64,000 nucleotides of DNA from Candidatus Pacearchaeota archaeon (GTDB taxonomy: Archaea; Nanobdellota; Nanobdellia; Pacearchaeales; GW2011-AR1), in contig CAXNIJ010000003.1 of the NCBI GenBank assembly GCA_964202455.1, positions 43,352 to 107,351 of the forward strand, read 5' to 3'. The position numbers and the translations under genes are program-made. The notes beneath the pieces were generated by a model. It did not search any database and was not told the DNA's origin. It worked only from the letters and a program-made list of their open reading frames with translations. Of this stretch, positions 60,497 through 64,000 are shown piece by piece; position 1 is the stretch's first letter; every line of letters starts with the position of its first letter.

Positions 60497-61171
60497 TTGT
60501 CTATGTTAATTATTGGAATAGACGATGCAGGAAGGGGTCCTCTGATTGGCCCGATGATGCTCGCAGGAGTGCTTTTAGAAGAAAAAGATGAAAAATATCT
60601 AAAAGAAGAAGGAGTTGACGATTCTAAAAAATTGACTCATCCAGTTAGAGTTAAACTTGCAGAAACAATTAAAGATAGTGTGAAAGCATTTGAAGTTGTC
60701 TCAACCTCTGCAACGCAAATCGATCATTCTCTTAATACTGGAATAAATTTGAATACTCTTGAAGCTATGAAGACAGCAGAAATAATAAATAAATTAAATA
60801 ATAAAAAAGATAAAATTAAAGTTATTGTAGATTGTCCCTCAGTTAATACAAAAGCATGGAGAGCAACTCTTTTGGGATACATTCATCATTCTGAAAATCT
60901 TGAAGTTCTTTGTGAACATAAAGCAGATGCAAATCATCCATCGGTATCTGCGGCTTCTATCTTAGCTAAAGTTGCTCGTGAAGAAGCAGTTACAAAATTA
61001 CAAGAAGAATATGGGAATATGGGCTCAGGATATCCATCAGACCCGACAACCATTGTATTTTTGAAGAAACATGGAAAACGCTTAAAAGATTCTGGAATTT
61101 TCAGAACCACCTGGTCTACTTGGAAACAACTCTTTCCAGATGCAAAGCAGAAGACACTAGAAGGATTCTAA
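60497..61171 (+). CDS. rnhB: ribonuclease HII
   Basis: 224 aa. Motifs: IIGIDDAGRGPLIGPM, KADANHPSVSAASILAK, GSGYPSD. Confidence 0.9.
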   Translation: MSMLIIGIDDAGRGPLIGPMMLAGVLLEEKDEKYLKEEGVDDSKKLTHPVRVKLAETIKDSVKAFEVVSTSATQIDHSLNTGINLNTLEAMKTAEIINKLNNKKDKIKVIVDCPSVNTKAWRATLLGYIHHSENLEVLCEHKADANHPSVSAASILAKVAREEAVTKLQEEYGNMGSGYPSDPTTIVFLKKHGKRLKDSGIFRTTWSTWKQLFPDAKQKTLEGF

Positions 61172-64000
61172 TCTCCAGGTTTTTCTTCTTCTCTTTCCAA
61201 AGCTACTTCGCTCTCTATTTCTGCAACAGCTTTTTCTTCAAGAACTTCGGCATCCGATTTTACTTCTAAAGAAGATGGAGATTTTTGATTACTTTCAATT
61301 TTTAAACTTAGAACTTTTGAAACTCCATCATGCATACTCACGCCATAAAGAACATTTGAGCTCATAATAATTGAATCGTTGTGTGTAATTACTATATATT
61401 GCCCGGACTTCATGTATTGGTGAAGAAGTGCAGCTAGGCGCTCAGAGTTTCTTTTGTCTAGTGCTGCATCAATTTCGTCAAAGATATAAAAGTGATAAGG
61501 CTTGTATTCCTGAATAGCAAATAAAAGTGAAAGCGCAACGAGCGTTTGTTCTCCCCCAGAGAGTGAAGTAACATCAAAATATTTTCCTTTTGCAAGACGC
61601 ACAACTATGTTTACTCCTCCTGCAAAAATATCTTCGTGGTTTTCCAGTTCTAGAAATGCAACTCCTTTAGAAGAAAGTTTAGCAAAATTCTGAGAGAATA
61701 AATCGCTCATTGCTTTAAAAGTTTTCATAAATGAACGTATTTTTTTCTTATCTATTTCTTCGACAATTTTCATAATTTCTATTTTTTCTTTTTCAAGCAC
61801 AGTTACTTTTTCAAAGACAATATCGTATTCCTTCTTTACCTCTTCGTATACCTCTAGGGCCCTCATATTAATTGAACCTATTTGAGTCAAAGCTTCTTGT
61901 GTTTTCTTTAGTCTCTCTTCTAGTGCGGCTATACTTCCAACTATAATTTCTACTCCCACAAATTCAGTTAGTTCCATATCTACTGCTTCCTTTTCTGCGT
62001 CTGCTCTCGCTTTTCCTAAACGAAGATAATTGATTTGATCATCTATTTGTCTAATTTCAGATTGAACTTCTGAAAGTGTAATTCCTTTGTCCTGAGATTC
62101 TCTTTGTAAGTTATCTCTTTGTTCAAACATTTTTTTAAAGCGCTCATTTAGACTCTTTTCTTTTTCTTCAAATTCTTGTAAAATCTTTGCTTTAGATTTT
62201 GCTCTTTCAACAAGGTCCTTAAGCTCTCTTTGAACGTCTTCAAGATCTTTAGAGCTTCTCTTTATAATATTTTTAGTCCCCTCTAGTTCTCTTTCTTTGT
62301 ATAATAAAGTGGTTTCTGCATCTTCTGCAGTTCTCGATGAGATTTCTTCAATCTCTAGTATTTTAGCATCGTATTTTTCTTGAATCATTACTAGAGCAGT
62401 AATCTTATTTTCTAATAATGATCTTCTTTGTTCAAACTGAAGTATTTCTTCTTTTAGAGATTTTTCCTGTGCAACAACTCTTTTAATCTGTTCGTTTTTA
62501 TCTTTGACTGTACGATGCCTCATTGATTCCATTTCTGCGCTTTGAAGAATTTCTTTTGACTGTCTCATTTCTTTATCTATCTCTCTTATGCGAGACTGGA
62601 GTTTCACCAAAGATTCTTGAGAGACTCTCTTTATCTCATTTGATTCAGAAATTTGTGTGTCTGACTCTCTAAATACATGCTCAATATGATTTGCAGTTAT
62701 TTTATTTTGACATAGGGGACAAGTGTCTATCTTTTCTACTTGATGTTTTATTCTCTCTGCATGGGCAATTTTTGATTCGGCTACAGATAGAGATTTTTCG
62801 TATTTTACTATTTCTTCTCTATTTTTTATCAATTCTTTTTCATATTCGCTAATTGTTTGCCTTGCATGAGTAATTGCTTTTATGCAATCCTCTTCTTTAG
62901 AATATGTCAACTTCGAAGCTAAAGATTCTAATTGTTTAAGAATTTCTTCTGATTCAATTCTAACTCTTGCATGTTGTCTTTCTTTATCTTTGAGAATTTC
63001 TCTTATAGAATTTAACTCAGTTTTAGTTGATAAAAGCTTACTTCTCTCTTCTTCCAGAAGAGCAAATTCTTCTTTCTTTTTCTTTAATTCTCCAGCTTTT
63101 TTTGCTAAAATTGGAGATTCCTTTCTTAAACTTTCTATTTCCTTATCTAATTCTGGAATTGTTTTCTTTATTTCTTCTACTCTTCTTTCTATTTCTGTTT
63201 TACGATTTTCATAATTTTCTTTTCTTACTTTCAATCCTTCTAATTCAGCCTTTAGATTTGCTACATTATTGTGAAGTGTTTCTTGTTCTAGGCCTGTAGC
63301 TTGTTGAATACTTTTATTTATTCTTTGAATTTCATCAGTTAAACCTGTAATATCTTTTTGATGCTTCTCTGATTTTTCTCTTAATTTATCTCTTTGTGAG
63401 GTCTTTTCTTGTATAGACTTAAAGAGAGCATCTATTTCTTTTTGTTTATCTTCGCCTTTTCTATGGAGAATTGAACTTTTACATTTTTTTATGTTTTGCT
63501 CTAGTTCTTTATAACGTAAAGCTTGAGAACGTTCTCTATCTAGATTTTTTAGATAAGCCGTACGTTCTCTAAGAATTGCAGATATTTCTCTTAATTTTTC
63601 ATCCGTTTTTCCCAATTCATGTAAAGATTTCTCTTTTCTTGATTCATAAATCGATATTCCCGCTACATCTTCTATAATTTTTCTTCTTTCTTCTGAATGC
63701 ATTCTGACAATCGACTGAATCTGCCCTTGAAGAATTAAGTTAAATCCATACGGATCAATTCCAGCTTGAGCTAGTAATTCTATAACTTCAGCGCGAGTTT
63801 TTGCTTCTCCATTTATCCTGTATATACTTTGTCCGTTATGCCGAACAACTCTAGTTACATTAACTTCGTCTTTTGGAACTCCGAAAATTTTATCGGTATT
63901 ATCAAATATAAGTTCTACAATTGCCTCTTTTGCCGGTTTGATATATTTTGAGCCCATAAACAAAAGATTTTTTGCCTTTGCAGCACGCATGGATTTAATA
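61168..64000 (-). CDS. smc: SMC-family ATPase with CxxC hook instead of hinge; N-terminus outside window
   Basis: SMC-type head pieces: VELIFDN...[10 protein letters not shown]...[12 protein letters not shown] at the N-end, and [36 protein letters not shown]...[11 protein letters not shown] at the C-end. The coiled coil is continuous, with [16 protein letters not shown] at its centre (62710-62721). The frame is open to position 64000. Confidence 0.85.
   Translation of the reverse strand, partial: [943 protein letters not shown]

Follow-up and report, generated by a model that had tools for sequence, protein, structure and literature searches.

An SMC protein of DPANN archaea with a Rad50-like apex in place of the hinge

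The smc gene at the end of a 64,000-nucleotide stretch of a Candidatus Pacearchaeota genome (contig CAXNIJ010000003.1, positions 43,352 to 107,351; here referred to as the window) encodes a protein with SMC-type ATPase heads, a long coiled coil that lacks the hinge, and an apex that, by sequence and predicted fold, resembles the Rad50 zinc hook. We consider it probable that this protein is the DPANN SMC orthologue, that an ancestor exchanged its hinge for a Rad50-type hook, and that two chains are joined by a shared zinc ion. In this model, the ancestor of the clade would have lost a hinge of ~180 residues, along with ~10 residues of the adjoining coil on each strand, and gained a Rad50-type hook of ~45 residues. 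Each chain would fold back on itself into an arm of ~300 residues, ~45 nm long by our estimate, with a CPxC turn at its tip, and two chains would share one Zn2+ through four cysteines, as in Rad50. The resulting constitutive homodimer would engage and release its heads with ATP in an otherwise standard head cycle, and would organize and segregate the chromosome in the manner of Smc-ScpA(B). Zinc binding, dimerization through the hook, a kleisin partner, and the cellular role are the parts of this model that we infer. In a full-text literature search, we came across no account of a naturally occurring SMC that bears a zinc hook, and surveys of archaeal SMCs mention no hook-bearing SMC (PMC8665677). 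Zinc hooks are already known in Rad50/SbcC and in the ASRP family, and we rate a hook on SMC heads as new, though not categorically new.

SMC-type heads on a coiled coil

The smc gene lies on the minus strand, where translation from 63999 to 61168 gives 943 residues that end in a stop codon and include every peptide quoted in a first-pass annotation of the window. A plus-strand reading of the same coordinates was rejected, as it is full of stops. No upstream stop occurs within the window, so the gene runs off its end at 64000. The missing 5′ end is supplied by a recorded contig (L001) that agrees with the window at every position over 12.8 kb (0 mismatches) and on which the protein was called as 990 amino acids (P0001, whose residue numbers are used here), starting with MVMTG (L001 9983-10003, just past the window end). 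An alternative ATG 18 nt upstream gives MVYIKKMVMTGFKSF and a product of 996 amino acids; this start matches the homologue consensus MxYIKKxVMxGFKSF. The first ~47 to 53 codons, including Walker A (GPNGSGKS), thus lie beyond the window end, while the Q-loop, the signature motif LSGGE, Walker B, the D-loop, and the H-loop are all inside it. At 990 to 996 amino acids, the recovered protein is indeed shorter than a typical SMC, as the first-pass annotation had expected; the deficit relative to hinge-bearing relatives is ~150 to 200 amino acids, roughly the size of one hinge.

To classify the heads, we compared the smc product with profile, structure, and defense-system collections. In a Pfam scan, SMC_N was the only match (2.6e-31). 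Among NCBIfam models, the highest scores were those of TIGR02168 (SMC_prok_B, 404 bits) and TIGR02169 (SMC_prok_A, 400 bits), followed at a distance by ASRP (79 bits), Rad50 (61 bits), RecN (28 bits), and SbcC (21.6 bits). The SMC scores do not reach the equivalog cutoffs (567 and 729, respectively), which is consistent with the unmatched hinge part of the model and with the absence of the first ~50 residues from the window translation. The cutoffs of the other families are also not reached: 700 for Rad50 (NF003034), 478 for sbcC (TIGR00618), and 300 for ASRP (NF045487), the last of which matches mostly over the coiled coil. The best PDB sequence matches were the Pyrococcus Smc heads (5xei, 4e-97; 4i99, 1e-82), followed by bacterial and eukaryotic SMCs, with Rad50 heads reaching only 1e-11. 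A full-length AlphaFold2 (AF2) model, with a predicted local distance difference test score (pLDDT) of 76, was likewise matched by Foldseek to 5xei and 4i99 (TM 0.86). PADLOC defense models scored far below the SMC profiles (mad3, 158 bits; LmuB, 69 bits; JetC, 23 bits). The heads are therefore SMC-type by profile, PDB sequence search, and fold, as the first-pass annotation had claimed, and did not group with Rad50/SbcC.

We next consider the middle of the protein, which the same annotation had described as coiled coil with no hinge. The SMC_hinge model (PF06470) found no match in the window protein or in a second hook-type protein (P0143), while the same scan recovered the hinge in the hinge-bearing proteins P0150, P0153, and P0155 at 1e-29 to 1e-35. 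A local hinge hidden Markov model (HMM) had zero matches across all hook-type sequences examined, and PF06470 is absent from the precomputed domains of all close homologues listed. Both models were used in place of regular expressions for the hinge (GRATFLPL and GGxxxGG), which are too strict. The NCBIfam SMC profile matches the smc product twice; in the C-terminal match, residues 437-901 of the window translation (P0001 484-948) align with SMC_prok_B positions 710-1181. The N-terminal match thus ends before position 710, leaving the hinge segment of the profile unmatched.

The AF2 model orders the full-length protein as head, helix (163-470), 12-residue turn, helix (483-822), and head. Both long helices have only short breaks, which in the descending arm fall at residues 602-607 (elbow-like) and 727-759 (joint-like, bearing an SMC-typical motif). 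BLAST against hinge-type DPANN SMCs aligned residues 4-458 and 506-948, with 35 to 42% identity over heads and arms, so that the replaced segment spans no more than ~47 residues. Relative to the hinge forms, each arm strand is shortened by just ~10 residues. Arm length is nearly constant: Walker A and the first cysteine of the central CxxC are 448 amino acids apart in 111 of 129 sequences, and the second cysteine and LSGGE 383 amino acids apart in 112 of the same 129. As modeled, the middle of the protein is a continuous antiparallel coiled coil, and the hinge is absent.

The Rad50-like apex and its distribution

The 990 residues of the smc product include five cysteines, two of which form the sole CxxC, a CPLC at the midpoint of the arm that the first-pass annotation had placed to the exact nucleotide and likened to the Rad50 hook. 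The motif proved to be conserved in orthologues: CxxC occurs once, and centrally, in 120/120 close homologues, and in an alignment of 114 sequences, C474, P475, C477, H485, and V489 do not vary and H488 is retained in 97%. Each of the 36 hook-type sequences found among the 50%-identity cluster representatives that we examined has CPxC, as do, without exception, all 150 hook-type homologues examined.

When a profile of the apex was searched against PDB sequences, the best match was the hook of Pyrococcus furiosus Rad50 (1L8D), with CPLCqskiteeH aligned to CPVCGRELTDEH. The Rad50_zn_hook model (PF04423) matches 37/37 apex fragments, mostly weakly (E values up to 10; best, 8e-7). A search of a protein database with the P. 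furiosus hook returned only the PDB construct; hhalign was therefore run against that single sequence, giving a probability of 90%. For the apex alone, AF2 predicts a helical hairpin tipped by the CPLC turn (pLDDT, 96.9), and the top PDB match of this model in Foldseek is again 1L8D (chain A; TM 0.82; root mean square deviation, 2.4 Å). Thus, the resemblance of the apex to the Rad50 zinc hook is one of both sequence and predicted fold.

Close homologues of the smc product are labeled "chromosome segregation protein SMC" and come from metagenome-assembled genomes (MAGs) of Pacearchaeota or Nanoarchaeota. Among 1.84 billion cluster representatives, the top ~25 matches are mostly full-length hook-type proteins of 946 to 1023 amino acids with 38 to 59% identity and a CPxC at their center, together with fragments, intein-bearing forms, and mini forms; the next-ranked matches are hinge-bearing SMCs of 1100 to 1200 amino acids, the nearest named one being from Woesearchaeota. 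Scanning GTDB species representatives for [IL][DE]xCPLCQ[SN][KT] identified 70 genomes, nearly all with DPANN labels (Pacearchaeota and Nanoarchaeota), NCBI taxon labels of MAGs being coarse. One hook-type SMC fragment (L061, JACOTQ010000015.1) lies on a 7.9-kb contig of a MAG labeled Candidatus Colwellbacteria, a bacterium of the candidate phyla radiation; this is probably a mis-binned DPANN contig. In the intein-bearing forms (P0036, P0048, P0054, P0066, P0114, P0115, and P0128; ~1450 to 1575 amino acids), the intein is near the N terminus and carries LAGLIDADG_3 (PF14528) and Intein_splicing (PF14890) domains (loci L017, L018, L020, L022, and L057); similarity to the window protein picks up again at about residue 30, within the Walker A region.

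A neighbor-joining tree of 108 full-length proteins, built from 338 head columns, placed 22/22 hook forms and four mini forms in one clade (bootstrap, 95/100) nested among hinge SMCs, with Woesearchaeota as the nearest named hinge-bearing member. This nesting suggests, as far as head sequences can tell, that the replacement of the hinge by the hook happened once. The hook module may have been captured by recombination from the Rad50 of the lineage itself. The mini SMCs (P0137/P0274-P0276, P0140, P0142, and P0148) have only 779 to 805 amino acids and neither hinge nor CxxC, with ~90 residues gone from each arm. One of them (L073 10001-12415) has the same neighbors as the hook genes: RNase HII, an Ig-like protein of 404 amino acids, AP endonuclease 2, and a HAD hydrolase. 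We suggest only tentatively, and with more doubt than confidence, that the apex changed twice in this clade, from hinge to hook and later, in several sublineages, by deletion of the hook along with ~90 residues per arm, which would have left SMCs without a recognizable dimerization module at the apex but at an unchanged chromosomal locus.

Alternatives to a shared hook in an SMC orthologue

Several observations weigh against the proposed model. The window protein scores only 16.4 bits on PF04423 (fragment E value, 0.008), which is below the gathering threshold of 24.3, and the Foldseek match of the apex has an E value of only 0.03, unsurprising for a helical hairpin this short. The AF2 runs were of monomers, so that a zinc site shared between chains falls outside these models. 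The head tree is based on a distance method and contains no Rad50 or ASRP outgroup. ScpA and ScpB did not turn up in the scanned window parts, the upstream 10 kb, or the smc flanks of 70 related loci; since scpA and scpB are not always detected in archaea (PMC7055376), an absence close to smc says little. Finally, the pattern C-x2-C-x7-H-x2-H in the close subfamily could form an intramolecular site.

The last of these points leads to the strongest competing explanation, in which CPLC and the two following histidines form an intramolecular Cys2His2 knuckle that only caps and stiffens the tip of the arm, and the chains dimerize through contacts between arms or heads instead of a shared metal. 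Apart from the conservation of H485 and H488 in the 114 close homologues, it can draw on the AF2 prediction of a short beta turn leading into a helix, like a knuckle-plus-helix zinc site, and on weak Pfam matches of apex fragments to zinc fingers (zf-Di19 in 27/37 and zf-Tbcl_FmdE in 7/37). Across the 36 hook-type representatives, however, the first histidine is kept in 31 and the second in only 15, while both cysteines are invariant. The first histidine also occurs in the hook of P. furiosus Rad50, whose ligands are four cysteines, two per chain (bioRxiv 10.1101/2020.06.24.160820), and the best sequence and fold matches of the apex are to that hook and not to zinc fingers. With the two cysteines as the only invariant candidate ligands, one chain on its own cannot supply all the ligands of a tetrahedral site throughout the clade. 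Conservation thus favors a shared Cys4 site as the probable arrangement, and we regard the knuckle as unlikely.

We next asked whether the hook-type protein might be an accessory paralogue, acting for example in DNA repair or defense, beside a canonical hinge SMC whose gene lies elsewhere in the genome. Two hook-type loci (L032 and L066) come from a single MAG (CAYZSY01), a pairing that could reflect a strain mixture, contamination, or a true duplication, and the PADLOC matches to the SMC-like defense ATPases mad3 and LmuB, though weak, point in the same direction. In contrast, within DPANN SMCs the hook clade is placed where the orthologue would be expected. A gene for RNase HII lies within ~1 kb of smc in 49 of the 70 hook loci, at the mini locus (L073, 8679-9404), and at a Woesearchaeota hinge locus (L075, 8559-9116); linkage common to all three kinds of loci supports positional orthology. 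The neighbors of the hook gene are housekeeping genes (FtsZ, ribosomal proteins, and RNase HII), and no PADLOC score comes near the SMC scores. Judged from the head tree and the smc loci, an accessory role is quite improbable in our estimate.

It is very hard to maintain that the protein is a mislabeled Rad50/SbcC or ASRP (ClsN, Sph): a central CxxC is shared with Rad50 and ASRPs (PMC9389158), the ASRP profile does score over the arm and hook, and the Rad50 profile gives a score as well, but these scores are far below both their own cutoffs and the SMC scores, the PDB head matches favor Smc by ~85 orders of magnitude in E value, the arms align with hinge-type DPANN SMCs to within 16 residues of the hook, the clade nests within hinge-bearing SMCs, and an adjacent Mre11 gene was not found.

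Genomic context, known systems, and implications

The features of the smc gene are listed in Table 1. The acidic tail at the C terminus has a pLDDT below 50 at residues 950-971 and 982-990.

Table 1. Features of the smc gene in the window (residue numbers of P0001)
Feature	Position in window	Strand	Basis
smc gene, 3′ 95% (residues 48-990)	61168..64000	-	translation and L001 match; stop codon 61168-61170
N-terminal head half, visible part (residues 48-162), with Q-loop LQGQ	63655..63999	-	Pfam SMC_N; PDB matches; AF2 secondary structure
Ascending arm helix (residues 163-470); breaks at 282-284 (joint-like) and 340-348 (elbow-like)	62731..63654	-	AF2; BLAST homology to residue 458
Hook loop (residues 471-489); putative zinc ligands Cys474 and Cys477 (CPLC, encoded at 62710-62721)	62674..62730	-	
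Descending arm helix (residues 490-822)	61675..62673	-	AF2; NCBIfam SMC_prok_B alignment
C-terminal ATPase head half (residues 823-948)	61297..61674	-	motifs read; PDB search; Foldseek TM 0.86 to 4i99
Signature LSGGE	61549-61563	-	motif in C-terminal head half
Walker B FYIFDEID	61468-61491	-	motif in C-terminal head half
D-loop AALD	61456-61467	-	motif in C-terminal head half
H-loop ITHN	61378-61389	-	motif in C-terminal head half
Acidic C-terminal tail (residues 949-990)	61171..61296	-	homologue length variable; no alignment consensus

The gene for RNase HII (60497-61171, plus strand) is convergent with smc and overlaps it by 4 nt. Also near smc are FtsZ (57911-59002, minus strand), a SepF-like protein (47224-47601, minus strand), the ribosomal proteins L1, L10, and L37ae and the acidic stalk protein, an Spt5-like protein, and prefoldin subunits. 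These surroundings are those of a typical archaeal housekeeping region and not of defense genes.

The first-pass annotation had suggested checking the genome for ScpA/ScpB, Mre11, and Rad50. Over the scanned window parts, the 10 kb upstream, and the smc flanks, this check found none of them. Pfam coverage of the window extended to all but ~10 kb (roughly 20.3-22.3, 24.3-28.5, 38.5-41.3, and 44.2-47.1 kb). ScpA, ScpB, Mre11, and Rad50 are also missing from the conserved neighbor families of the 70 related loci. The scanned window parts and the smc flanks likewise show no metallophosphoesterase gene, and a regular expression for an N-terminal ScpA motif had zero matches. None of ScpA, ScpB, Mre11, and Rad50 lies beside the hinge-type DPANN SMCs either. 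A second CPxC protein at one hook locus (L025) was considered as a Rad50 and rejected, being UvrA. A 91-amino-acid open reading frame (ORF) upstream of smc (L001 9668-9943, plus strand) was considered as a partner; it has no Pfam match and no homologue in the 70 loci and is probably not a real conserved gene.

Elsewhere in the window, positions 1-25345 hold a large surface-glycan cluster with many GT2 glycosyltransferases, Alg13/Alg14-like genes, a flippase-like gene, a fused dTDP-glucose dehydratase/nucleotidyltransferase, a dTDP-sugar epimerase, a DegT aminotransferase, a carbamoyltransferase, and an asparagine synthase; the Pfam scan of this region covered all but the ORFs at 20290-22332, 24332-25345, and 25347-28532. 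A small ParE-family toxin-like ORF (36974-37222, minus strand; E value, 2.8e-7) is preceded by a run of Cys-rich ORFs (34521-36967), each with an N-terminal hydrophobic segment and with zero Pfam matches, that look pilin-like from their sequences. Exact-sequence lookups of the proteins at 15067-16914 and 38494-41268 were empty, even though a recorded contig matches the smc end of the window without a difference; a different start codon call or a divergent second assembly may explain this.

Compared with Smc of Smc-ScpAB (Pyrococcus 5XEI/4I99; Woesearchaeota P0150), the hook protein has the same full set of head motifs, the SMC-typical joint motif, an antiparallel arm of ~300 residues, and the RNase HII neighborhood. 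It differs in lacking PF06470, in its shorter length, in a CPxC hook set ~10 residues closer to the head than the boundary of the hinge, and in that a kleisin gene has not yet been located. With the Rad50/SbcC hook (P. furiosus Rad50, 1L8D and 6ZFF), it shares the CPxC turn at the tip of an antiparallel coiled coil and the extended motif CP[LV]C-x4-[IL]T-x2-H, but its heads are not Rad50-type, Mre11 is not adjacent, and its arms are SMC-derived in both length and sequence. The ASRPs (ClsN/coalescin and Sph1/2; PMC9389158) likewise belong to the SMC-superfamily ATPases of archaea and carry a zinc-hook motif in the middle; they form a separate family with an NCBIfam model of ~600 positions, whereas the hook protein is an SMC by head and arm homology. 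The "hinge-less" SMCs reported from marine Actinobacteria-like sequences are reported to be bacterial and to have no CXXC (Sussfeld et al. 2025, PMC12153180). They resemble the DPANN protein in their SMC-type heads and arms and in the loss of the hinge, which in the DPANN protein is replaced by a hook, and their closer likeness is to the mini forms of the clade; they are a precedent for hinge loss and not for the hook.

The closest parallels are laboratory constructs. A Bacillus subtilis Smc in which the P. furiosus Rad50 hook replaces the hinge is described as a functional chimera (PMC5344682; bioRxiv 10.1101/2020.06.24.160820), and a Schizosaccharomyces pombe Rad50 has been made with the MukB hinge (Tatebe et al. 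2020, PMC6969161); together, the two chimeras indicate that hinge and hook modules are interchangeable. The B. subtilis construct, Smc(Zh) (Bürmann et al. 2017), connects SMC heads and arms through a Rad50 hook, the design proposed here for the DPANN protein. Unlike either chimera, the DPANN form occurs in nature, in no fewer than 70 species-level genomes, and its arms are of near-constant length.

The hook-type SMC would thus be a natural counterpart of the laboratory hinge-to-hook swap, spread across a whole, diverse archaeal lineage. The functional B. subtilis hook chimera argued that a simple dimerization module suffices, and the near-constant arm length fits the idea of "tuned arms." The database label of these proteins as SMCs hides a distinct architecture, whose small, well-predicted apex suits structural work and which offers a compact natural setting in which to ask what purpose the hinge serves. 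Within one clade and its relatives, the apex forms a graded series of hinge, hook, and nothing. If the mini forms are the sole SMC of their cells, a stable link at the apex would not be universally required for SMC function.

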